64,000 nt of DNA from Mayamaea pseudoterrestris (GCA_027923505.1 BROI01000016.1:434001-498000), one strand, 5' to 3'. Positions 26,218 through 38,507 are shown, counted from the first letter of the stretch. The notes: generated by a model not told the origin, from the letters alone. Numbers and translations are program-made.

Positions 26218-27399
26218 ATGCAACAATCGACCTTGCAGAATGGATCAGTTTCTCGCATCTATCCGTTCGAACAAGAAGTGAATGAATACGAAGACGAAAC
26301 AAGACTCAATAGAGTCAATAATGCAGCGCACGAGTCAGCATTGTCCTCGTCGTCTACCGACTCACCGACCATCAGCACGAACAACGACGAACACGGCACT
26401 CCGTCGAACGAAACATTACTGGGAACCGCCTTTCTATCCTTCATGAGTTTTGCACTTTTGGAAATAGTCTTTGCTTTGATTGCTGGGTCCCATGCCATGA
26501 TGGGAGATGGAGCGGCCATGACGGTCGACGCCATGACATACTTGCTCAACTACTATGCTGAACGGAGGAAGAAAAAGTTGCTTAACATTAATGTCAATGG
26601 TGAACAAGTAGAAGCAATGGCAAGAGAGTGCACTTTGCAGCAGCAGCGAACCAAGCGTAAGCAAGTACTTCAACTCGAAATAATTTCCCCCTTGCTGTCC
26701 GTCTCGGCGCTCATGGTCATTACTGTTTACGTCATGGGCCAAGCAATTCATACATTGCTGCTTGACTTGCATCGGAGTCGATCAGAGCAATTGAGTCCAA
26801 ATGTTGACTTGATGATGGCATTTAGCTTTTTGAACTTGGTTTTGGACTGCCTAAATGTTTACTGCTTTGCAAAGGCCAAGCATTTGCTAGGCTATGCGAC
26901 GGTTGAGCAACAAGAGTGGGAAGGTGTAAACGGTGATGATAATGTAATTCAAGTGAACAAGCTATCCAGTGCTGCAAGATCCATGGAAGGGCGCCGAAAA
27001 TACTCGCTCGTTTGCGCCGATGACGATTACAATGCCCACGAGAACGGATGTAGCATTAATGGTTTGAAAGCAGCGGATAAGTCACCAGAGATGCGTCACC
27101 AAAATTACCATGACTCGCACGAAGACGACCAACATGCCAATCTCAACATGTGCTCCGCATATACACACGTCTTTGCCGATACGCTACGTAGCATTGCTGT
27201 TCTGATTGCTGCCGCCGTTGCCAAGATTGTGCCTGGTGTTTCTTCGGAGGAGGCGGATGCCACGGCTGCAGTTTTCGTTTCAATTCTAATAGTGTTTTCG
27301 TTGGTGCCGCTATTTCAAGGATTGTGCATGAGCTGCTCGGAGGTCATGGCAATCAAGAGGCTTGAACGCCAGGAAGCTGCTAACTGTAGTCCAGGATGA
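26218..27399 (+). CDS. Cation diffusion facilitator (cation efflux, ZnT-like) transporter
   Basis: SHAMMGDGAAMTVD (TM2) and NLNMCSAYTHVFADTLRS (TM5); His/Asp-rich loop; about 6 TMs. Confidence 0.82.
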   Translation: MQQSTLQNGSVSRIYPFEQEVNEYEDETRLNRVNNAAHESALSSSSTDSPTISTNNDEHGTPSNETLLGTAFLSFMSFALLEIVFALIAGSHAMMGDGAAMTVDAMTYLLNYYAERRKKKLLNINVNGEQVEAMARECTLQQQRTKRKQVLQLEIISPLLSVSALMVITVYVMGQAIHTLLLDLHRSRSEQLSPNVDLMMAFSFLNLVLDCLNVYCFAKAKHLLGYATVEQQEWEGVNGDDNVIQVNKLSSAARSMEGRRKYSLVCADDDYNAHENGCSINGLKAADKSPEMRHQNYHDSHEDDQHANLNMCSAYTHVFADTLRSIAVLIAAAVAKIVPGVSSEEADATAAVFVSILIVFSLVPLFQGLCMSCSEVMAIKRLERQEAANCSPG

Positions 27400-27648
27400 T
27401 CACTTGAATTTGACCTTGATGGGGCCGACGTTATGAAGCTGACGATTCTTTGATGTAGTCGAAGGACAAACGGAGCTTATGGACCACAGCCAACATATTC
27501 GACGACTGTGTATCGTTCTACAGGCATTCTCAATTCAAGCTGCCCCAGCACAGCACGACGCGAGTGCTTTGTGGTCGGAATTAAAAACCATATACAGCAT
27601 TTACTGCTATCTAGTTATATGACGTTACTTGCCGTACATATTAGTTAT

Positions 27649-27733
27649 TGTGGTAGGATGTATCCGGACATGCTTCACGACATCATGTAGCTAAACAGTC
27701 GAAAGATTTACACCGCTGCGACATTGCATGACA
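27649..27733 (-). mobile_element. Terminal fragment of the 2.25-2.98 kb element
   Basis: TGTGGTAGGATGTATCCGGACATGCTTCACGAC...CCGCTGCGAC..TGCATGAC matches the reverse complement of the element's right end. Confidence 0.8.
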
Positions 27734-27886
27734 TCTTTTCCTCGATGGATCCATCAAACCGAAAGCCGATCCACCATGACGTACTGCAGTTTCTCCGGTG
27801 CGACTAAAAGCGAACAGAGACAGCTGCCGGAAAGCGAACAGTTGATGTTTCGAAACCACTTGACCTCATAAAAAGCCTTGGGTGCC

Positions 27887-29739
27887 ATGAATCATCGCTT
27901 TGGACTCACTGCAGTCGTCGTGATACTAGCCTCCTTCCAACATGAATGCCACGGTTTCCTCATCCCTGCATCGAGTAGACATCATCATCACCAGCAATAT
28001 GATTTCCACAGACTCTTCGCTAGCAGCAGCAGCGAGGACAAGTACGACTTGATCGTCGTCGGCGCCGGCGTGGCCGGCGTCCAAGCCGCCCTCATTGCCT
28101 CGCAGGCACCCTACCACAAAAAGGTGCTCGTGGTGGACGCTCCCTTCGCATCCGGCAAGCTCATGGTCAATGACGAAGATTTAAGCATTGGCGCTCCCAC
28201 GGGACTCTTCAGCAAGGCGCTCCGCGATACATCCAAAAAGGTGAACGTTCCAGCGCTCCGCGGCATTGGACTGCGCGAGGAAAGCGTTTGGAACGAAATC
28301 ATTAGCAGTTGCGTCGACTTGGCGCAGTCCAATGCGCAAGATATTCGGCGGCAACTGGCCTTTGCCAATGTTGATTTAATGGAAGGACTAGCGACATTTC
28401 CGGATGGAGGAGCGACGGATTCGTTGCTCGTCACGAGAGATAGTGTCATGCAAACGATACGAGCCGACAAGATTTTGTTGTGCACCGGCAGTCAACCCTT
28501 TCGGCCGAGTGGGATTCCCTTTGACGGCAAGCGCATCTTTGACAGTGACAGCATCAACGCAATATCATACTTGCCTCGATCAGTGGCTATTACGGGGAGT
28601 GGTATCATTGCAGTCGAGTTTGCCAAGATATTTAGGTATGTGCGAGTTGGATGGTATTTGACTTGAAACAAATATTCGTGATTCATCGCTCAACCAATCT
28701 TATAACGTTTCATGACAGAAATCTTGGCGCCGAGGTGACGCTCATCATTCGCGACAATGTTCCACGAAATGCGCTACAAAAGATTGGACTCGACAAGGAT
28801 GTTGCGGCGACACTGGTAGCCGACTTGATTCGATCAGGCATTCGCTTTGAGCGTGGCGCCCAAGTGAAATCGTTTGACATTCCAGAATCGGCCAAAGCTC
28901 CCATTAAAATTACCTTGGAGGCCAGTCGCGGATCACCGGAACTTGGTCATGGTCGCGCCACTGAAATCAAATGCGACGCCTATCTCGCCGCTGTTGGTCG
29001 CAAACCAAACACTGGAAGTCTCAACTTGGCGGCGGCCGGCATCAAAGTCGACGAGTACGGCGGCATTTTGGTGGGACCAAGTCTCGCCACGACGGCAACC
29101 AGTGGCAACGTGTTTGCGGCGGGCGACGTGTTGGGTCGTCCGTTCCTGGCGAGCACGGGAGTGGCGCAAGGCAAGGCGGCGGTGGCCTCCATGTTTGGTG
29201 ACGCCGTTTCGAGTCCGCAGTGCCGCGCCGACGACGAAACCTGCAACGATGACGGCGTTAGTGCGGCGGGGGTTTCGTTTGATCCCGCGTCTCTGGCGGC
29301 CAACCCGTTTGCCTTTCCCACGGGTGTGTGGAGCTCACCAGAGGTTAGCCAGTATGGTTTGACCTTGCAACATGCACTGGAAATGAATATTCCAGCCGGC
29401 GAAAGCATTGCTTTGTACGCAGAGTGCTTGAGAGGCCGCGTGTTTAGCCCCGATGGATTGTTGAAGCTTGTCTACAATAAAGAAAACGGAAGAATTATTG
29501 GCGTCCACATCTGTGGCGATGATGCATGTGAGCTTATACACTACGGAATGGAATTGGTCAAGGGGCAGACAACAATCAACACTTTGACGTCGAGCATGTT
29601 CAGTGCCGTCACCTACCATGAAATGTACAGAATCGCAGCCCAAGCTGCGTTGGATGAGGCTGGGGCAAGGAAACGTAGGGCCGCAGCCGGTAAAGCTCTA
29701 GCTGAACGGCATAGAAAGCAAAGAGCAAAGGACAACTAA
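27887..29739 (+). CDS. Soluble pyridine nucleotide transhydrogenase-like flavoprotein (SthA/UdhA-like), probably plastid-targeted; intron 28636-28718
   Basis: YDLIVVGAGVAG (FAD), SKALRD, GSGIIAVEFA, FAAGDV, IIGVHICGDDACELIHYG; signal peptide followed by G-FLIP. Confidence 0.78.
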
Positions 29740-29986
29740 ATAAACCTGGTATGGGTGAATTTAAGGTAGAAGGCGTGCTCGATTCAAAGGTGTAAAATGT
29801 CGCGGCAGCCACAGGATTGTGGCTTGTAAAACACGGAAAGCTAAGCGTGCACTGGAATTTTCTTGCATGAATAGATATCCTACCACTACCAGTGTAACAG
29901 ACATTAACATGACAAATATAGCTAAGCAGTACCCGCAGTAACTTAACAAACATGCGTACGACATTGGTCTCCGGATAGGAGTCCGA

Positions 29987-32900
29987 TTAAGAGGAGAATC
30001 GACCTTCCGTGTCGTAGGGATCGATCATGGCGTGCAAGTGTCGAATGGCGCATTCCGAAAACATGGTTCGGTCAAGGCCAGTTCCAGCGGAAGGCACGTT
30101 TGAAGACCGACCGTAGCCTCCTTCCAACACTGATACCACTCTTCCTTGACAGCAAATGTCGGCGACTTCCAAAATCTTGCGCGTCGTCCAAGCATAGTCC
30201 TGTGGTTCAAGATCCAAACCAGGGCGCTCACCTCCCTTTTCGTGACGAGCGTTACCAACGTCTCCCTTTGCAGCGTCAAAACCAGCGCTGATGAGAATCA
30301 AGTCTGGATCAAAGGCTCGGAGTGCTGGCAGCAGACGGCTCTGAATCGCTTGTCGATATGCCAATCGACCAGTCAAGCCACCCGAAGCTCCTTGTCTTGG
30401 CAATAGAGTGCTTGTAGCCTGAGTCGATCCTGACTCACTGCCTCCGTCACTCACTTTAACATCACTGCCACGTGGAGTGTCGGTTTCTGATGCATCATCG
30501 TTAGAATCCGGCGATGATGACTTTTGCTTGCCGCGAGTATTGTGCTGACGTAGCGTGGATTGTGCCGAGCTGCTACCGGAAGACGATCTCCAAAGGGGAG
30601 TCAATGGGACATTGATTATGTTCAAGGCCAAATCGTCATCACTGCCAGTCCCTGGGTAAAACTTGTATTGCGTGTCGCCAGTTCGCTTCCGTTTATCGTT
30701 GTCGTACAAGTGAATTGAAAAAAAGAACAGCTTGTTTGGATCACGGCACCGGCGAACAATCTCCTCTGTGCCGTTTCCGTGATGGCAATCCAGATCTACA
30801 ATAGCACAGCGCTTGCAAAGTAAACGATCATCTGAAATGGCGTAAAGCGCGCCAGCCGCCACATTGTTAAAAATGCAAAAGCCGCACGACTCTCCGCCTT
30901 CTAATAAGCCACCGACGCCGGCGTGATGTCCTGGAGGCCTGACGACACAAAAAGCATTGCGGTTTCTGCCGACCAGGACACAATCGACAGCATGTTGCAC
31001 TGCACCAGCAGCTCTCCTTGCCGCCCTTAACGATCCAACACTAAAGGCTGTGTCAGAGTTGACATTCAGCTTCACTTTCGAATCGCTCATATTAATCATG
31101 GAGCGCTGTATATGAGGCGTAAAGGGAACTACGGGCGGCGAGCCAGTTTGATTGTCAACCGGAGCATCCTCTGACTCTTTCAGTTGGCGTTCAAGATCTT
31201 TGCTGAGCTGATTAACAAACGAAAGGTATTCCGTGCTGTGAATTCGACTTAGTAGATCCAGCTTTGCTCGATCAAAGTCGGTCGAAGCCGTAATTTCGTA
31301 CGGAAATACACCAGACGTTTCCGTCTCACCAGTCGGATCACTGGAAGGCAAAATGCGACGCATAATGGACTTGACTCGATCTGGAGCCTCCCAATCTGAC
31401 GTACTTTTGGGATGGTGCTCTAAACATTCTGGATGGTGCAGCACCAGAGTCTTGGATTGCAGCGAACGAAGAAATAAAATGGCTCTCGATTCTCGGCGGT
31501 CAAGGGCAGACAGTTTAACTGCCTTTTTCAGTTCAGTCTTACCGACCTTTTTCCCATTCGCTTCCTTGAATCGAAGGGATGCTAGCGAGTTCGGATCATC
31601 CAAAAAACCATCCGCAGCAACATCGACTGGCCTTCGAAAGTATTTATTCAGAACGGAAGGTCGCGCTCCATGAGTTAACAAAACTGTGGCAACATCAATG
31701 CCAACACGACCTGCTCGCAGCGCCCAGTGCAGCGGCGATTCGCCATCTTCATTCTTGGCTTCAAAGTTGCAATTCCTCATCACCAACTGCGTCGCAACTG
31801 CCTTGTCGCCGACTCGGGCTGCCCAGTGAAGAGCGTTATTTCCATGCGCGTCGATATTGTTTGGATTCGCACCAGCGTCAAGCAAATGTCGAATCATTGC
31901 ATTTGACACGTCGTAATTGTCGTGCGATAGCAATCCGAGGGCACTCGCCGAGTGCAATGGGAAGTAGCCTGCGGAATCTGGCTGGTTCAAAAATTCTACA
32001 TCGCTCGCTTCCCGTTGCAAACCATCCAAATCTAACCGCAGAATGGCCTTGTGCAACTCGGATCTAACAATATCGGGTGTATCGACGCATACTGGGTGCC
32101 TGCCCATCGGTTCCGTGGCAGCGGGAAAGCTCAAGGCAGTAGCCGCCGCCGCTGCATCACCATCGTCCAATCCAATCGTCGGCACAACACCATCGGCATC
32201 TTTAACATTGCCAACATTACGCTGCGCTCCCACGAGTGCATCTAGCTGCCCGTCCCACGGTGTTTGCGGCGACTCGTTGCCACGATGCCGCTTGAATGTG
32301 TCGACATCCATCAGGTGCGACGGATTGACAATCTGCAGCGACAGTCCCTTGCGCGCGGCTGCTAATGGCTGTTGTCCACTCGTTGCTGCATCGTTCAAGG
32401 GAGGCGCAGGCGCCTCCGCGTAGTAGTAGTCACGTTGCGCAGTTTCTTCGTCTTGTGGCAACGGTGGCGTGTCGCGTCCATCATCCATCAAATCGAGTGT
32501 TTCGTCATGTTCATCGTCGTTACTTGGTTGTTGCTGCTGACTTGACGCATTGCTAATGACACCGGCCAGCATGCGTGCAGCGGCAATCTCGGCCAGCTTG
32601 CGCTTGCCCGTGGCCGCCGGCGATGGTTCCGGAAAGGATGATGCGTTTGCCGACGGATCGGGCGCCACAATAGACATGCGCGCTTGCTGCTGTGGTCCGC
32701 CCCAGCCGTGAAACAGTTTCGGCGGTAACGTGTTACTATCCAATCCTCCCATGCGGGGTGGAGGCGGCATGTAGGCGGCTTCATTCGCGGCAGCTTGACT
32801 ATTGTTGTTATTGTTGAAATTGGAAATGACTTGGGCGGCCGATAGCGTGGCACTCGACGAGCGTCGACTCTGCTTTGGCAGGGGCAGCAGCGGCAAGGCA

Positions 32901-33754
32901 CTGCTAGTTGCACCAAACGGCGCCGACACTGCAGCAGCAAACGTACTACTACTCGCCGCCTTGGTGCTTGGCTTGCGCCGCCGGCCACTCGCCGAAACAC
33001 TGCTACCACCGACACCATACTCGCTTGCCGCTGCTGCACCATGACTATTTTTACTCGCCTGCTGCTGCTGCACCATGCGAATCATGTCATCCTCACTCGG
33101 AGATGCATTCGTACCACCACCACTATGTCCAGACTGCGCACTCTTGCCCATTTTCTGAAAGTACTTTTGCGCGTGCGTCCGCGTCTGCACCACGGTGCGC
33201 GTCTGCACGCGGGCCGCCACCTTTTTCCACTCCTTGCCAAACAGAGCGAGCCCCTCCAGAAAGGCTTCGTGCTCTTCCTTGGTCCACCGTCCAGTGTGCT
33301 CCGAGCCAGTGTCGCAAACGCTACTGTGCTTGTGGTAGCGGCGAGTTGTTGATGAATTTGGAGTTGGTACTGGTGGTGGAAGTGGGAGGGAAGTGTTGCT
33401 TGCAGTGTAACTTGTAGTGCCTGCTGCGGCTGCTAATGGAGTAAAACTTGTATTAAAAGCAGTCGCAGCTGCATGCATGGACGTTGGTCCCAGTGGCGGA
33501 GAATCCTGTCCTTCGCCGTCATCGTCCTCATCATCCTCATCAGTACCTTCCTCGTCGTCTTCATCTGTACCCTCGTCATCATCGCCATTTTCATAATCGT
33601 TTTCGTAAGTTGCAGCCGCGGCGAATAGGTGGCTGCTGTGGAGCAGCTTGGCGCGTCGACTGGGTGGCGATGACGATGATGTATGACTCTGCATTTGTTG
33701 CTGCTCACCGCCACTGCCATCCGTCAGGTCGAGAAACTGCGTATGCTGCGACAT
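29987..33754 (-). CDS. Fusion of a SHAQKYF-type MYB domain, ankyrin repeats and a class II-like histone deacetylase
   Basis: WTKEEHEAF...QTRTHAQKYF; GNNALHWAA and GESPLHWAL; RPPGHHA, GFCIFNNVA, DLDCHHGNGT, SAGFDA, LEGGY in one uninterrupted 1255 aa ORF. Confidence 0.93.
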   Translation of the reverse strand: MSQHTQFLDLTDGSGGEQQQMQSHTSSSSPPSRRAKLLHSSHLFAAAATYENDYENGDDDEGTDEDDEEGTDEDDEDDDGEGQDSPPLGPTSMHAAATAFNTSFTPLAAAAGTTSYTASNTSLPLPPPVPTPNSSTTRRYHKHSSVCDTGSEHTGRWTKEEHEAFLEGLALFGKEWKKVAARVQTRTVVQTRTHAQKYFQKMGKSAQSGHSGGGTNASPSEDDMIRMVQQQQASKNSHGAAAASEYGVGGSSVSASGRRRKPSTKAASSSTFAAAVSAPFGATSSALPLLPLPKQSRRSSSATLSAAQVISNFNNNNNSQAAANEAAYMPPPPRMGGLDSNTLPPKLFHGWGGPQQQARMSIVAPDPSANASSFPEPSPAATGKRKLAEIAAARMLAGVISNASSQQQQPSNDDEHDETLDLMDDGRDTPPLPQDEETAQRDYYYAEAPAPPLNDAATSGQQPLAAARKGLSLQIVNPSHLMDVDTFKRHRGNESPQTPWDGQLDALVGAQRNVGNVKDADGVVPTIGLDDGDAAAAATALSFPAATEPMGRHPVCVDTPDIVRSELHKAILRLDLDGLQREASDVEFLNQPDSAGYFPLHSASALGLLSHDNYDVSNAMIRHLLDAGANPNNIDAHGNNALHWAARVGDKAVATQLVMRNCNFEAKNEDGESPLHWALRAGRVGIDVATVLLTHGARPSVLNKYFRRPVDVAADGFLDDPNSLASLRFKEANGKKVGKTELKKAVKLSALDRRESRAILFLRSLQSKTLVLHHPECLEHHPKSTSDWEAPDRVKSIMRRILPSSDPTGETETSGVFPYEITASTDFDRAKLDLLSRIHSTEYLSFVNQLSKDLERQLKESEDAPVDNQTGSPPVVPFTPHIQRSMINMSDSKVKLNVNSDTAFSVGSLRAARRAAGAVQHAVDCVLVGRNRNAFCVVRPPGHHAGVGGLLEGGESCGFCIFNNVAAGALYAISDDRLLCKRCAIVDLDCHHGNGTEEIVRRCRDPNKLFFFSIHLYDNDKRKRTGDTQYKFYPGTGSDDDLALNIINVPLTPLWRSSSGSSSAQSTLRQHNTRGKQKSSSPDSNDDASETDTPRGSDVKVSDGGSESGSTQATSTLLPRQGASGGLTGRLAYRQAIQSRLLPALRAFDPDLILISAGFDAAKGDVGNARHEKGGERPGLDLEPQDYAWTTRKILEVADICCQGRVVSVLEGGYGRSSNVPSAGTGLDRTMFSECAIRHLHAMIDPYDTEGRFSS

Positions 33755-34447
33755 GATTTATTCGTATTCGTTGTTTCAGTGTTTGTTTGTGATTATAAAG
33801 AGATCCCGAAGCAGCAAGAATGCAAGAACCACTCGATGATTCGTGTGACGCCGTCTCGTGTCTTGATTTTTTGAAAAAGACCAGAAAGTATTAGTGAGAT
33901 GTAATGTTCAATGTCTTTGATTGAGACTACTACTATTGATTGTATATATTGTACTGTTTCAAGTAGCAACGATGAGGTACAAGCAGCGCTCAACGAGGTG
34001 CCATGGCAGCAGGTGTGACGTGACACTTTGTTCCACCGCGACCCGTATCTTGCGCGCGCCACAAAGATACTACCACAGCCTACGTAGAGAGTCACGTGGA
34101 AGGATCTCGACTCTTGACTCGCATGATAAGTTCTTACCTTGCTATTTATATATATACTTGTCTCGTTTTCGTTGATCCAAATCAAAGCTTTTTACAAAAC
34201 GAGACCTGTTTGCAATACAGCGCAATGATGGAGGAATCTCACTCCCAATGTCGCACCCAGCTTGGTCCGAATTCCACAACGATGGTTGGCCAAAATGACG
34301 GGGCATCCGATGTCTTTCATGAGGGTTCGAGTTAATATCGTTAGCTATCAGGCTGGTGTCTAGAGGTGCAGAAGAATTCACAGCAATATATTTAATAAAG
34401 AACGTATGACTATATAAACACCGATCAATTATTACTAATAGAACCTA

Positions 34448-35801
34448 TTAAGACTCACTCTTAGCAGCACTACTACCAGTACTCACGTTGACATTCTGGA
34501 CTTGCGCCTGCACTTGGCGCATTGCTTCCTCGAGCAGTTGCTTTTGCTGTTCGTAGTAGTCTTGCTCGAGCTGCTCGCGGCGGTCAAACTCTTGCTGCAG
34601 TCGGGTTTGCGCCGCCAGCTTTTCCTCCTGCAGTAGGGCAATTTGTTGCATGACGACAGCCAATGGTTCCAGTTTGTCTTGGTTGGCAAGGACTTGATTG
34701 TTCCAGTTGCCATTGAGTTGCTGCTGGAAGCGAGATGTTGCGGCGGCTGTATCAGAGTTGTCATCGCTTTCTTGTTGTAGTTGAGTCATGCTGCTACTAC
34801 TAGTAGATTCGCTGCCATTACCGTTCAACCAAGGATTGCTTGCGTCGCTCATTCCTGTTCCGGAAGTGTATTGCTCAAACTCTTGGTCAATAATGGCTTG
34901 CTCCTCAGGACTTAGTGTGGAATCGTTGCCCAGCACTGGAGGTGTTGCTGCGGATATATTCTCCGAGACGGATGCCAGTACAGTTTCAGCCACATTTTCT
35001 CCTGCACTACTCGCCATTGGCATTTCCAAATCTGGTACCCTGCCATCAAGCTCACTACTACTATTCTCCTCCTCCTCCAAAAGCACCTTTCTCTTGGCCT
35101 TTCGTCTAACAATCTTTTTCCCCGACGCCCCCACGGCCGCCACGGCTTCCACGGGCGACTCGCCCCGCGGCGACGTGACGGTGGTGCTAAAGGCATCCTC
35201 CTCCTGATCCACGTTGATGGTGCGCCGAAACGAAAAGGCGTCCGTCAATTCCTGCTGGGCCTTGCGAATCTCGTTAATCTGCAGCTGGTCCTCCATGTTG
35301 TTTTCAAACGTTTTCGTCAAATCGGTGCTGAACGAACGCACGTTTTGGACAAACTTGCCAATCTCCTTGACGACCTTGTATAAATCGGATGGACCGAGAA
35401 TGAAATAGCCAACGAGGAGGATTGTGAACTGCAAAAAGTGACGATGAAGAAAAGAGAGAATGTAGCAAATTAGTTGGAATGATTTCAGACGAGAAATTGG
35501 ACGGAATCAAGATCATTAAACTCACCAGCTCGGGTCCACCGATTCCAAGTATACCTCCATCGGATCCCATGAACATGTTCAATGACGTCGTTGATAATGT
35601 ACCCCTTGCTTTTGGCGATTGAATAGGACATACTATGCTGCTGCGTTGCTGTATGGTAAAGCTGCCTCGATAATGTATCAGTGGGCTAATGGATGTGAAT
35701 CCGCAAACTGCTTGCGGTTGCAGTAAAGCCGCAGCCATGATTGCAAATAGACAAGCGCCATGATTTCTTCTTCTCCGCCTTGATCGAGCAGTAACATTCA
35801 T
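34448..35801 (-). CDS. tatB: Plastid twin-arginine translocase subunit TatB/Hcf106-like; intron 35429-35525
   Basis: Bipartite presequence (VCG-FTS); spliced GILGIGGPEL/FTILLVGYFILGPSDLYKVVKEIGKFV TM plus amphipathic helix; long acidic tail. Confidence 0.8.
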
Positions 35802-36324
35802 AGTGATAGAGAAAAGGTGAACTAATAGATGAAAAAGGAGATTGACCTGCTGCTGTTGAAGTCGCTTTTCGATCATCCATCATCGTTCATGGAGGGTCTC
35901 GCGGCGCGGTGAGTGACGTTCGAACAATCCGTGTCGCACCAGTTACCGGTACGACTAATTATTTACTATTGCCTGCAAGTTACTGAGGTGGCAGTCGAAA
36001 ATGACTCATTAAAATGTCGCGACAAACGAGGGGCAATACATAAGCCACGACCACAGTCGTCCGAACACGAATGACTGACCGTCAAGGGCTATAATTTTGA
36101 CACTGGGCACGCAACGCGAAACACCTTTCACCAGCCGAAGGCGAAGAACAAGGCGATTGGTTGCGGTTTTCTCGCGTCTCACAAAATCGATCGACTCGAT
36201 GCTTCGACGACGGCTTTCGGCACTATATATCCCGTGACTGCTCGACTTCATTGCATCAAGTCAAGACAAGTCTTGATCATTGTGATTCATTCGCTGTCTC
36301 GCATCTCATCTGTGTCTCAAGACC

Positions 36325-38507
36325 ATGCCACCCAATCAACGAAACCATAGCAACACTTCCACCAGCAAACATCGTTCCATGACTTCCAACGATGACACTC
36401 ACTCCAACTACAACAACAATACTACATTCAGTTTCAAGGAAGACTACTGCTTCAACTGCTACATTACCACGAGCGAGATTGATCACTACCTGATGCAGTG
36501 CGGCAAGTGCCACTCCTTTTACTACTGCGGCATGGCGTGCTTCAACGCCCATTTGAGCGTGCACATGCAGTACTGCCAAACGGGCAAAATGAACTATCAG
36601 CCGGTGCGATATAGTAGTAGTAGTGGTAGTCTGAATGTGCAGCCGTCACAGCAACTGATCACGACGACGACGACAAGCAGCAAGGTTACGCGAACGCCAT
36701 CCAACGACTCGCTGCCACGTCGCAAACCAAGCGACAAACTATGGGCCGCCTTTCATGACTCGTCGTCATCTTCAAGCAGCAGCAGCAGCAGCAGCAGCAG
36801 TGACGACGAGTCGTCCATCTCCGGATACGAGTCGTCGTCGTCGTCGTCGTCGAGTTCTTCTTCTTCGAGCAGCAGTGACGACGATATCGCCGTGGAAACC
36901 ATCGAGGAGGAAGTCACCAACGACCGAGACTCGTCGCAGGATAGCAGCTGGTCGAATGACGAGCACGAGGCTGTCATTGTCAAAGTATCGACCGTTGATT
37001 TTGTCAAGGATGCAGCAACTGTTACTACTGAAACGACTTTAGTTGGAGCAGTCGACAACGACGAACGTGTCGAAACGCCGTCGGAAATTCAAATGGTTGC
37101 ACCAGAAGCCATTGACGACGCCAATGACTACGAGTACGACGAGGACTGCACGGGAGCCTACAGTCGCAACAAGAGCGCCAATGACTATGAGGACTACGAG
37201 GAAGCATATGTGAGCAAGGGTTGCGGACGCGTGGGTGGCACCGAGTGGATCGTCACGGAGGATGTGAAGCGTCGCCGCGGGAGTGCACTTGTGACCATGG
37301 CGCTGCCACCATGCGCGCCAGCAGTCGTAGGCCGCCGTCATTCCATTTGTGCGCCAATGCAAGCGGCGAGTGGTAGTAGTGATGCAAATGCCAAGCCAGC
37401 GTACCGAGTTCCGCTCAAGGCAACCAAGTATGATGAAGACGATGATCATGGCGACAACATTGCGATCGCATCTCGGTCGGACCAAGCCGGTGCCAAGATG
37501 AATGGCAGCAACAACATGAACCGCAGGTTTGCAATCTCGTTTAACAACGCCAACAACTCATCCACTCACAATGCCAATCACTCGCTCGGTAGTTCCACGC
37601 GCGTGTCGCCAGCCGAAGTTGACCGCATTCGTCGCAAGCAGCACCAAAACATGCGTCTCACGGCGCACGAAATGGTGGTGCTGCGGTGCCTTTCGCCGCA
37701 ACAGTACTCGCCCGATCGATTGAGCGGCGAGTCGTCGGAGAGTGCGTCGGAGAATGTGGATCTGCGGCACGTACATGTCAAGGAGCGAACGAAACCGCAG
37801 TTTGAAAAGCCGGAATGGTACGTGCAACTTGATTGCCGAATTTGTTCATGCTTGGTTTTCTTCGAGCAATCAAGTCTAATAATGCGCATTGTTTTACCAT
37901 TTCTGCTTGCAGGATGTCGCAAACTGCGCTTCTACGAGCTACCTCCAAAGGTGAGCGTGCCCGGAAGCAGGGAGACCTTCGTAAACATCGCGCTCCGAAA
38001 CCGGAAGAAGCTTGGGAGCAGCCCGAATGGACGCGAAGGGCGCCGCTGCGCACATCCTCTCGTGGAGCCCGGCTCAAGGCTGGCAACAGTTTGCGCAAGG
38101 AACGCAAGGGAAATGGTATCCAAGTGCTTGGTGACGACGACGCAACTCCAAAGGAACGTTCTGCTCCGCCACGTCGTTCCTCCAGGGATGGAATGCCACG
38201 AAAAGCGCCATCGTCTCGAAAACTTTTGGCTCGTACGTCTTCGTCATCATCCACTCGCACAACTTTGTCGCGCGCATCCTCCAAGGGCAGCACCAAGCGC
38301 GGCGGCGGCAAGCACAAGAGCGACAAGGCACCCGTCGCGGAGAACGTTCGAATTGAGAATGGACAAATCATGTGGGAGGCTCCAAAACTGCGAAGCACGG
38401 CGCGTGGGTCGCTCCTGCTGCGTCAAGAGAGTATTCGCAACTCCAAGTGCCTTGGAGCGCTGCGTGCGTCGGCGGATGCTGTCAAGAGCATGATTGGCAA
38501 TGAGTAG
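36325..38507 (+). CDS. MYND-type zinc-finger protein with a Ser/acidic low-complexity region and three C-terminal W..LR[AST] repeats; intron 37818-37912
   Basis: CFNC...CGKC...YYC...C...H...H...C; splicing joins KPEW/MSQ into the 37833-38507 frame. Confidence 0.7.

Follow-up and report, generated by a model that had tools for sequence, protein, structure and literature searches.

On balance, the reading frame described here, which lies on the minus strand of the window (the whole 64,000-nucleotide stretch of Mayamaea pseudoterrestris DNA that was analysed), is a real gene and probably encodes a class II zinc-dependent lysine deacetylase with its DNA tether in the same chain. A Myb domain, ankyrin repeats and a histone deacetylase (HDAC) domain are truly joined in its one predicted protein. 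For the roles that go beyond this architecture, we infer that the protein is nuclear, binds specific DNA sequences, acts on histones and represses transcription. HDACs normally reach DNA through separate proteins. If one chain both reads DNA and carries an active deacetylase, it would provide a simple, directly testable model for erasing chromatin marks at chosen sites: one protein, one motif, one mark.

One reading frame for three domains

The coding sequence and the probable intron upstream of it are as follows.

29987..33754, minus strand: full coding sequence of 1255 codons and a stop codon (29987-29989), with its ATG at 33752-33754; coding part intron-free
33862..34137, minus strand: probable intron of 276 nt in the 5'UTR, bounded by GT..AG (GTAAGAAC...AAATCAAG); one contig, run X2 only

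In the minus-strand translation, an in-frame TAA at 33760-33758 stands directly 5' of the ATG (33754-33752), and 1255 stop-free codons would arise by chance with a probability of about 7e-27, taken as (61/64)^1255. Contigs of four public runs have no joint inside the frame between 29987 and 33754. In both flanking genes, contigs from runs X2, X3 and X4 pass over canonical introns (28633->28717; 35428->35526) and, because they do so, we take these runs, whose records do not state RNA, to contain RNA. A single contig from run X2 joins 33861 to 34138, with a shorter side of 43 letters. The coding part is thus uninterrupted, with a probable intron only in the 5'UTR, which bears out the single intron-free frame of the original prediction; the three domains that it had placed in that frame (Myb, ankyrin and HDAC) are all matched within the 1255 residues.

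The fusion could still be a reading artefact, either of adjacent Myb and ankyrin-HDAC genes that happen to share a frame or of a gene expressed mainly from an internal start, as an isoform that lacks Myb. We consider this very improbable. No contig in the four public runs spans Myb to HDAC in this diatom, and none spans the whole frame (the longest listed pieces are about 1.4 kb). Myb-less ankyrin-HDAC models account for 16 of the 120 best database relatives, an Atlas cluster that is commonest in diatoms consists of 651-residue ankyrin-HDAC proteins, and the Phaeodactylum gene Phatr3_J4423 is given ankyrin and HDAC domains and no others in the part of the source available to us (PMC11492738). 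Against an artefact stand the 1255 stop-free codons, with conserved motifs inside the linker, and the presence of all three Pfam domains in 89 of the same 120 relatives, complete transcriptome open reading frames among them (MMETSP 'type:complete' P0008, P0018 and P0046). Moreover, the Myb-less rows nested among Myb-bearing ones in a 144-row tree are mostly short at the N-terminus, and every nested ankyrin-only row has just 0-130 residues ahead of the ankyrin domain, which is consistent with truncated models. A minor internal-start isoform is possible.

The Myb domain and the conserved linker motifs

The N-terminal half of the protein contains four features.

33704..33745, minus strand: N-terminal motif HTQFLDLTDGSGGE, residues 4-17 (alignment block 'Nterm')
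33143..33298, minus strand: SHAQKYF-class Myb domain, residues 153-204, three helices (Pfam PF00249, TIGR01557, AlphaFold2)
32561..32632, minus strand: linker motif m1, residues 375-398, in which PSPAA-x-GKRK precedes a short helix
32240..32347, minus strand: linker motif m2, residues 470-505, L-Q-I-V-N-P ... P-x-T-P-W-(D/E)-G

The Myb domain is recognized by Pfam (PF00249, Myb_DNA-binding, residues 155-199, E 1.9e-11, 44.3 bits against a cut-off of 24.4) and is modelled by AlphaFold2 with a pLDDT of 90-94. It also scores 37.0 bits with the NCBIfam model TIGR01557 (myb_SHAQKYF), above the cut-off of 29.3, and has THAQKYF at residues 193-199, so that its assignment to the SHAQKYF class stands. 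This motif, with Thr in place of Ser, lies in the third (recognition) helix, is helical in the model and is invariant across 34 aligned relatives, as are residues 190-200 as a whole. The most conserved 20-residue block of the entire protein is 181-200, with a mean column identity of 0.93 compared with 0.85-0.90 in the catalytic core. The domain is basic here (net charge +6, pI 10.2) and in all 34 aligned family members (net charge +5 to +11, pI 9.9-11.4). Because of this uniform basic charge and the near-invariant recognition helix, the domain looks, at the level of sequence, more like a DNA binder than an acidic SANT domain.

Myb-like domains of chromatin enzymes and co-repressors can be SANT-type binders of histone or enzyme. 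It is conceivable, although we think it unlikely, that the diatom domain is of this type and binds histone tails or nucleosomes, or positions or activates the deacetylase, with targeting left to partners on the linker motifs or ankyrin repeats. Among solved structures its second match is the Myb-like/SANT domain of KIAA1915 (2cu7, E 5.7e-11), and there are weaker matches to the SANT domains of REST corepressor 3 (CoREST, E 0.0022), NCoR2 (0.0072) and MIDEAS (0.049); in addition, the conserved motifs m1 and m2 suggest partners, and in thraustochytrids the same core is found with a PAH domain. However, canonical SANT domains present an acidic, non-DNA-binding surface, which the diatom domain lacks at its charge and pI, and the strongly basic character extends to all 34 members. 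The TIGR01557 cut-off is passed, the top solved match (6nvz, E 1.2e-16) is named 'Myb family DNA-binding protein shaqkyf family', and the recognition helix is the part of the protein that is most conserved, all of which argue for the DNA-binding reading.

The linker (residues ~210-548) is modelled with low confidence, with pLDDT mostly below 50. This agrees with its original description as a long disordered linker; two conserved short motifs nevertheless lie inside it. In the alignment, m1 has P377, S378, P379, A380, A381, G383, R385 and K386 invariant or at least 90% conserved, and its helix is modelled at residues 384-400 with a pLDDT of just ~63-65; we regard it as a candidate nuclear-localisation and partner-binding element. 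The corresponding positions of m2, each at least 90% conserved, are L473, I475, N477, P478, P496, T498, P499 and W500. Both motifs probably bind partners. Their conservation argues that partners are required and that the protein is not necessarily self-sufficient; together with the PAH domain of thraustochytrid relatives, m1 and m2 weaken the earlier idea of a repressor that targets itself without co-repressors. The N-terminal motif is common to many pennate and some centric diatom relatives and was detected by a custom HMM in 36 of 250 proteins.

The ankyrin-deacetylase module and its likely substrates

The C-terminal part of the protein has the following features.

31610..32077, minus strand: ankyrin-repeat domain, residues 560-715 (Pfam Ank_2/Ank 619-704; AlphaFold2)
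30005..31453, minus strand: class II histone/lysine deacetylase domain, residues 768-1250 (Pfam PF00850, PDB matches, Foldseek)
30923..30928, minus strand: tandem catalytic histidines H943-H944 (PPGHHA), aligned to HDAC6
30782..30796, minus strand: D987-L-D989-C-H991 (DLDCH), aligned to the HDAC6 D-x-D-x-H-H-G-N-G block
30275..30277, minus strand: D1160 (AGFDA), aligned to HDAC6
30113..30115, minus strand: Y1214 (EGGY), aligned to HDAC6
30383..30562, minus strand: Ser/Asp-rich insertion in the HDAC domain, ~60 residues (1065-1124), predicted disordered with pLDDT <50

In the AlphaFold2 model of residues 140-1255 (pTM 0.67), pLDDT reaches at least 90 in 544 of the 1116 residues and is mostly 87-98 from residue ~549 through the HDAC domain. 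The ankyrin repeats match Pfam Ank_2 (E 1.2e-11) and Ank (E 2.8e-11) over residues 619-704, and the paired helices at residues ~566-712 (pLDDT 94-98) are modelled as a stacked ankyrin fold, which a long predicted helix links without a break to the HDAC domain.

The HDAC domain matches Pfam Hist_deacetyl at residues 789-1217 (E 6.4e-58, 196.9 bits against a cut-off of 27.9), covering profile positions 3-285 of 298. Its PDB sequence matches are HDAC6, 5ji5, HDA15 and HDAC4, with HDAC10 also matched; the best single-domain match is 5ji5, a bacterial HDAC-superfamily protein (127.9 bits), and the HDAC6 domains come next. Foldseek retrieves class II HDAC structures with a probability of 1.00 (target TM 0.90 for 5ji5, 0.78 for HDA15 and 0.77 for HDAC6 CD2), which, with a pLDDT mostly above 90, supports the arginase/deacetylase fold. 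The catalytic motifs that had been called apparently intact from the sequence alone (GHH, D-C-H, GFD and EGGY) were all found by translation and aligned to HDAC6. In alignment A1 of 34 family members, conservation is at least 90% for every one of H943/H944, D987/D989/H991, D1160 and Y1214. We take D989, H991 and D1160 to be the three zinc ligands, D987 to be part of the monovalent-cation site and Y1214 to be the catalytic tyrosine. Active HDACs of the class I/IIb type are marked by tyrosine here, and class IIa enzymes have histidine. The top sequence and fold matches and the retained Y1214 place the predicted domain in class II (HDAC6/HDA15-like), and the intact catalytic residues predict a deacetylase that is apparently active.

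The Ser/Asp-rich insertion recurs, with variable length, at the same place in the transcriptome-derived relatives P0008 and P0013. Its interpretation as an intron was rejected, as a run X4 contig (30237-31104) crosses it without a joint.

HDAC6 acts largely on substrates other than histones, and HDAC10 deacetylates polyamines. Specificity for histones is not assured, because the best catalytic matches are bacterial 5ji5 and HDAC6, with HDAC10 also matched. The main substrates could instead be non-histone proteins (transcription factors or further proteins of the nucleus) or small molecules, for example acetyl-polyamines, with the Myb domain and ankyrin repeats serving localisation or substrate capture; we rate this as distinctly improbable. 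These catalytic relatives speak for it, as do the name 'acetoin utilization deacetylase AcuC-like enzyme' that one source gives to relatives and the general protein-binding nature of ankyrin repeats. However, the plant class II HDAC HDA15, which is nuclear, matches the structure equally well, and the fusion to Myb, or to PAH in thraustochytrids, points to chromatin and transcription.

In the mechanism that we favour for a DNA-tethered deacetylase, the N-terminal SHAQKYF-class Myb domain would dock the protein on DNA, presumably at a defined sequence element, to judge from the basic charge of the domain and the near-invariance of its recognition helix. The KRK-containing linker motif would be a likely nuclear signal, the two conserved short motifs would hold partners, and the flexibility of the ~350-residue linker would let the C-terminal module, in which ankyrin repeats and HDAC domain are packed as one rigid unit, reach nearby nucleosomes. 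There the module may deacetylate histone tails or other nearby chromatin proteins, so that local transcription falls.

Distribution of the family and comparison with known systems

Because many stramenopile algae and protists share its design, the triple fusion is, as judged from the sequences compared, an old stramenopile family and not a one-off. All three domains were found by custom HMMs in 43 of 150 representatives at 50% identity, and named bearers include diatoms, Triparma, Ectocarpus, a chrysophyte, Dinobryon, MAST-4 and Blastocystis. This retention speaks for selection on the fused form. The original prediction rightly guessed that the protein may already be annotated in other diatoms, where relatives carry automatic names; names given to relatives include "SHAQKYF class myb-like DNA-binding protein" and "histone deacetylase". 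The novelty that it saw in the Myb addition is weakened by how widespread the architecture is in stramenopiles, which it had itself named as grounds for withdrawing that novelty.

The thraustochytrid proteins (Hondaea fermentalgiana GBG27432.1 and a Thraustochytrium sp. LLF1b transcript) share the ankyrin-HDAC clade and the catalytic core. Unlike the diatom protein, they are without Myb and, according to custom HMMs, without m1 and m2; instead, three of the four clade members scanned have a C-terminal Sin3-type PAH domain, a co-repressor module that binds transcription factors. The ankyrin-HDAC core therefore does not need Myb. In a 47-row tree, all 21 Myb rows and 6 thraustochytrid-type rows fall on one side of a branch with an SH-aLRT of 95, and two changes suffice to explain the presence of Myb.

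We suggest, as a tentative extension that we think more likely wrong than right, that the family is an ancient modular one-chain stramenopile repressor, in which a rigid ankyrin-HDAC 'eraser' core is fused to lineage-specific targeting modules (Myb in ochrophytes, MAST-4 and Blastocystis; PAH in thraustochytrids), one cis-element and its regulon have been kept, and the linker motifs dock co-repressors. On this reading the near-invariant recognition helix would imply a single conserved cis-element. If so, one cis-element and one deacetylation-controlled regulon would have been kept across more than 12 named genera, with diatoms at one extreme and a protist of the gut at the other, and the conserved linker motifs would be docking sites to other co-repressors.

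The ankyrin-HDAC subclass is already published (PMC5499015), and the triple architecture is already visible in public databases. In the literature we found no paper mentioning a Myb fusion to ankyrin-HDAC and no report of DNA binding, activity, localisation or knockout for any family member. The family, which apparently nobody has studied, is present in Blastocystis as well as in ecologically dominant algae; it would offer a concrete candidate regulator for diatom and brown-alga epigenetics.

The fold and the full catalytic set, including the tyrosine, are shared with HDAC6, HDA15 and bacterial HDAC-like amidohydrolases. These have no Myb or ankyrin domains, whereas the diatom enzyme has its ~60-residue disordered insertion and, relative to HDAC6, a 6-residue insertion after the tandem histidines. 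KIAA1915 is presumably MYSM1, which deubiquitinates histone H2A and combines Myb-like/SANT, SWIRM and JAMM domains. It, too, joins a chromatin-modifying activity in one chain to a Myb-like domain, one that matches closely; it differs in being presumably a deubiquitinase and in having no ankyrin repeats, where the diatom protein has both these repeats and a deacetylase domain. The SANT/ELM2 co-repressors (CoREST, NCoR/SMRT and MIDEAS), which bind and activate class I HDACs, also pair a Myb-like three-helix domain with a deacetylase. Their pairing is non-covalent and of the SANT type, with SANT domains that bind histone or HDAC and not specific DNA, whereas the diatom protein has a basic domain of the SHAQKYF class in covalent linkage to its deacetylase.

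In architecture, the closest published group is the class II HDA-family deacetylases with N-terminal ankyrin repeats from algae and heterokonts, described in the part of the source available to us as a distinct phylogenetic subclass of unknown function (Uhrig et al. 2017, PMC5499015); the word 'Myb' has 0 occurrences in its main text. As far as that account goes, the likeness lies in ankyrin repeats ahead of a class II HDAC in a heterokont host, and the diatom protein adds, upstream, a Myb domain of the SHAQKYF class and the conserved linker motifs m1 and m2.

Its Myb domain resembles the CCA1/LHY/RVE clock factors at the level of the SHAQKYF class only. Arabidopsis CCA1/LHY are functionally linked with an LDL1/2-HDA6 complex, according to the portion of that report available to us (PMC6237806). 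On that evidence the pairing logic is the same, a SHAQKYF site reader with a histone deacetylase at target genes, but the plant components are separate proteins, whereas the diatom protein is one chain. HDA6 is a class I deacetylase, and the enzyme joined to the diatom Myb domain is predicted to be class II.

The reading frame and its transcripts

The gene is a single open reading frame (ORF) of 1,255 amino acids on the minus strand (window 29987..33754, standard code). An in-frame TAA (33760-33758) lies directly upstream of the ATG, so the coding region extends no further 5′ in this exon, and the probability of 1,255 codons without a stop is about 7e-27. The original prediction had placed a Myb domain, ankyrin repeats and a histone deacetylase (HDAC) in this one frame, and Pfam matches to all three are indeed present.

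Pfam domains of the studied protein
Residues 155-199: Myb_DNA-binding, E 1.9e-11
Residues 619-704: ankyrin repeats, E ~1e-11
Residues 789-1217: Hist_deacetyl, E 6.4e-58

The protein also exceeds the cut-off of the NCBIfam model for SHAQKYF-class Myb domains (37.0 versus 29.3 bits). Translation also located every signature motif that had been proposed: THAQKYF (193-199), PPGHHA (H943/H944), DLDCH (987-991), AGFDA (D1160) and EGGY (Y1214). The gene is real, and its Myb-ankyrin-HDAC architecture is confirmed and strongly conserved. Further ORFs of 103-184 amino acids overlap the region on either strand. The genes on either side (cation efflux, oxidoreductase, kinase, fasciclin, UCH, subtilase and others) are ordinary for a eukaryote and unrelated, and they show no clustering that would inform on function.

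We compared window positions 27000-37000 with contigs from four public sequencing runs (X1-X4), which come from one study and whose kind of data is not on record. In three of the runs (X2, X3 and X4), though not in X1, contigs jump over two stretches: 83 nt with GT..AG ends in the upstream neighbour (28633 joined to 28717) and 97 nt (35429-35525, GT..AG on the minus strand; 35428 joined to 35526). From these skips, X2, X3 and X4 appear to hold spliced RNA. The 97-nt skip connects two ORFs that lack a Pfam match and form an unannotated two-exon gene adjoining the HDAC gene.

Gene features around the reading frame
27872-29736, plus strand: upstream neighbour, a pyridine-nucleotide-disulphide oxidoreductase gene, two ORFs split by the 83-nt intron 28634-28716
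33862-34137, minus strand: probable 5′UTR intron of 276 nt, GT..AG; 33861 and 34138 adjoin in one X2 contig
34448-35296 and 35304-35876, minus-strand splice: ORFs of the unannotated two-exon gene

Within 29987-33754 the contigs of all four runs contain no joint, so the description of the ORF as intron-free holds for the coding part. The probable intron at 33862-34137 sits just 5′ of the start codon, although the coding part has none. Many positions differ between the contigs and the window, with roughly half of the contigs 95-99% identical, and several 3-nt indels occur in the low-complexity linker of the ORF (for example, at 32637, 32804 and 32928); these keep the frame and would reflect differences between alleles or strains.

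That the fusion is mis-read, or that a Myb-less isoform dominates, would be compatible with the fact that none of the listed X1-X4 contigs covers the span from Myb to HDAC (pieces of at most ~1.4 kb, in the part of the table seen). Full-length transcripts, transcript ends and expression levels are beyond the reach of these short contigs. All three domains are nevertheless found in complete transcriptome-derived ORFs of relatives (MMETSP entries P0008, P0018 and P0046), which support a single transcript for the fusion, although not as direct proof in M. pseudoterrestris. We consider both a mis-reading and a dominant Myb-less isoform very improbable.

Conservation and predicted structure

An alignment of 34 full-length members was used to profile conservation block by block. 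The best-conserved 20 residues of the protein form the Myb helix-3 block (181-200), with a mean column identity of 0.93, above the 0.85-0.90 of the catalytic blocks. All 34 members have a basic Myb domain (pI 9.9-11.4, net charge +5 to +11). Conservation of the linker between the Myb and ankyrin parts is poor in these members outside two motifs, m1 and m2. A third motif, near the N terminus, is common to many diatom relatives and absent from non-diatom members.

Conserved motifs outside the domains
Residues 4-17 (window 33704-33745, minus strand): N-terminal motif, H-T-Q-F-L-D-L-T-x-G-x-G-G-E
Residues 375-398: m1, PSPAA-x-GKRK core with a short helix after it
Residues 470-505: m2, L-Q-I-V-N-P ... 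P-x-T-P-W-D/E-G

We modelled residues 140-1255 with AlphaFold2 from an alignment of 91 sequences (mean pLDDT 70.7, pTM 0.67). The Myb domain is modelled with a pLDDT of 90-94. Values in the linker are mostly below 50 and rise to about 63-65 at m1. The disorder originally attributed to the linker thus fits most of its length but has to accommodate the conserved m1 and m2 within it. From residue ~549 to the C terminus, pLDDT is mostly 87-98; because these values are uniformly high, and given the pTM, we predict one rigid unit in which a long helix connects the ankyrin repeats to the HDAC domain. A Ser/Asp-rich insertion of ~60 residues in the HDAC region (1065-1124) is disordered in the model. 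We rejected the idea that this insertion is an unspliced intron, since it is present in transcriptome-derived relatives and is crossed by a contig of an intron-skipping run.

Foldseek aligned the model with class II deacetylases at target TM-scores of 0.90 (5ji5), 0.78 (HDA15) and 0.77 (HDAC6 CD2). By sequence, the top single-domain match of the catalytic domain is again 5ji5, a bacterial HDAC-superfamily protein (127.9 bits); HDA15 and HDAC6 domains come next at ~100 bits. The top solved match of the Myb region is 6nvz, a 'Myb family DNA-binding protein shaqkyf family' (E 1.2e-16), and the region also matches 2cu7, KIAA1915 (E 5.7e-11). The Myb domain could instead be of SANT type, with a role other than sequence-specific binding. 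It does match co-repressor SANT domains, but these matches, like those to c-Myb repeats, are far weaker, and we think this reading unlikely.

On balance, and with modest confidence, we favour a DNA-tethered class II lysine deacetylase. In this mechanism the Myb domain would sit on DNA, probably at a defined element, and the flexible linker would probably supply a nuclear signal together with motifs to which partners dock. The ankyrin-HDAC unit would then remove acetyl groups from nearby chromatin proteins, presumably with a repressive outcome.

Distribution and history of the family

We scored the 8,000 candidates sharing most words with the protein, which gave 470 relatives at E <=0.001. The Myb addition had been put forward as the notable part, yet 89 of the best 120 of these 470 (the studied protein included) match all three Pfam domains, Myb, ankyrin and HDAC; among the same 120, 16 lack Myb and 15 have Myb and ankyrin without an HDAC entry. 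Bearers of all three domains among the relatives listed include Fistulifera, Amphora, Epithemia, Pseudo-nitzschia, Cylindrotheca, Nitzschia, Thalassiosira and Skeletonema, as well as Triparma, Ectocarpus and a chrysophyte. Their database names were assigned automatically, as either 'SHAQKYF class myb-like DNA-binding protein' or 'histone deacetylase', and the guess that the architecture may already be annotated in other diatoms was correct.

An exhaustive HMMER search of 1.84 billion cluster representatives with residues 140-1255 returned 714 proteins at E <=1e-30, the best 150 of which we classified with purpose-built domain HMMs. Cluster look-ups, with domains confirmed by Pfam, added Myb-bearing members from MAST-4, Dinobryon and Blastocystis.

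Domain content of the best 150 of 714 HMMER matches
Myb + ankyrin + HDAC: 43
Ankyrin + HDAC, no Myb: 74
HDAC only: 28
Ankyrin only: 5

Many relatives that appear incomplete start or stop at query position 785-790 of 1116, which is protein residue ~924 (window ~30983-30985), inside the HDAC domain: at least 17 end there and several others begin. This shared breakpoint suggests that those genomes share a conserved intron, at which ORF-only gene calling has split the proteins, and the entries without HDAC that result from it do not look like truly HDAC-less proteins. The studied gene has no intron at this site. The Myb-ankyrin-HDAC protein is a member of an old, database-visible, apparently unstudied stramenopile family.

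In a FastTree phylogeny of 144 ankyrin-HDAC regions, a single group of 99 sequences (local support 84) takes in 79 of the 80 Myb-bearing ones. Ankyrin-only sequences in this group have 0-130 residues ahead of the ankyrin domain, and those with linker motifs but without Myb have as many as 443; either pattern would fit truncated models. We also analysed a 47-sequence subset (IQ-TREE quick search, LG+G4; midpoint root only, no AU test). A branch with SH-aLRT 95 separates 21 Myb-bearing and 6 thraustochytrid-type sequences from 20 ankyrin-only ones. In the former group a clade with support of 99 unites the ochrophytes to the exclusion of MAST-4 and Blastocystis; the thraustochytrid type groups with Blastocystis (support 85). 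Myb presence requires two changes on this midpoint-rooted tree, for which the simplest reading would be a single early gain followed by a loss on the way to the thraustochytrids.

Some thraustochytrid-type proteins combine ankyrin and HDAC with a C-terminal PAH (Sin3-type) domain and lack Myb: Hondaea fermentalgiana GBG27432.1, a Thraustochytrium sp. LLF1b transcript and one further relative. PAH is present in three of the four members scanned in this clade, with P0147 giving no hit.

PAH-bearing relatives (outside the window)
P0182, P0261, P0164: thraustochytrid type, PAH C-terminal, versus N-terminal Myb elsewhere

Different stramenopile lineages therefore combine one catalytic core with one or the other of two transcription-related modules, which supports a role in chromatin for the whole family. 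Substrates could still be mainly non-histone; beside the two modules we judge this improbable. The PAH swap and the conserved linker motifs also argue against the strongest form of the original prediction, an enzyme with no need of co-repressors; the DNA-tethered deacetylase that we favour would carry docking sites for partners.

Sin3-interaction-type helices follow the pattern hydrophobic-x-Ala/Val-Ala/Val-x-x-Leu, which the m1 helix matches. A complex prediction without alignments for m1 (residues 362-405) and the Hondaea PAH region as a stand-in scored 0.09 against a mark of 0.34, which speaks neither for nor against contact. When the thraustochytrid PAH region was used to look for Sin3 in diatoms, just two proteins came back, both ankyrin-HDAC-PAH.

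Comparison with known systems

We found no description of a Myb-ankyrin-HDAC protein in the main texts searched, which cover subscription journals only in small part. A 2008 survey of protist chromatin-protein architectures by Iyer et al. may mention one, and Rayko et al. are said to have treated diatom Myb families in 2010. The design is uncommon for HDACs and easily tested, and it is not unique to the M. pseudoterrestris genome.

A subclass of class II HDACs with ankyrin repeats is already in print for algae and heterokonts (PMC5499015), and its main text never mentions Myb, which the studied protein adds to this kind of enzyme. Phaeodactylum Phatr3_J4423, a possible orthologue, is described as having ankyrin and HDAC domains only (PMC11492738) and as up-regulated at high CO2 (PMC6340190). 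The functional analogues are SANT co-repressors with class I HDACs and plant CCA1/LHY with LDL1/2-HDA6 (PMC6237806); in both, the pairing is non-covalent, whereas here the Myb and HDAC domains share one chain.
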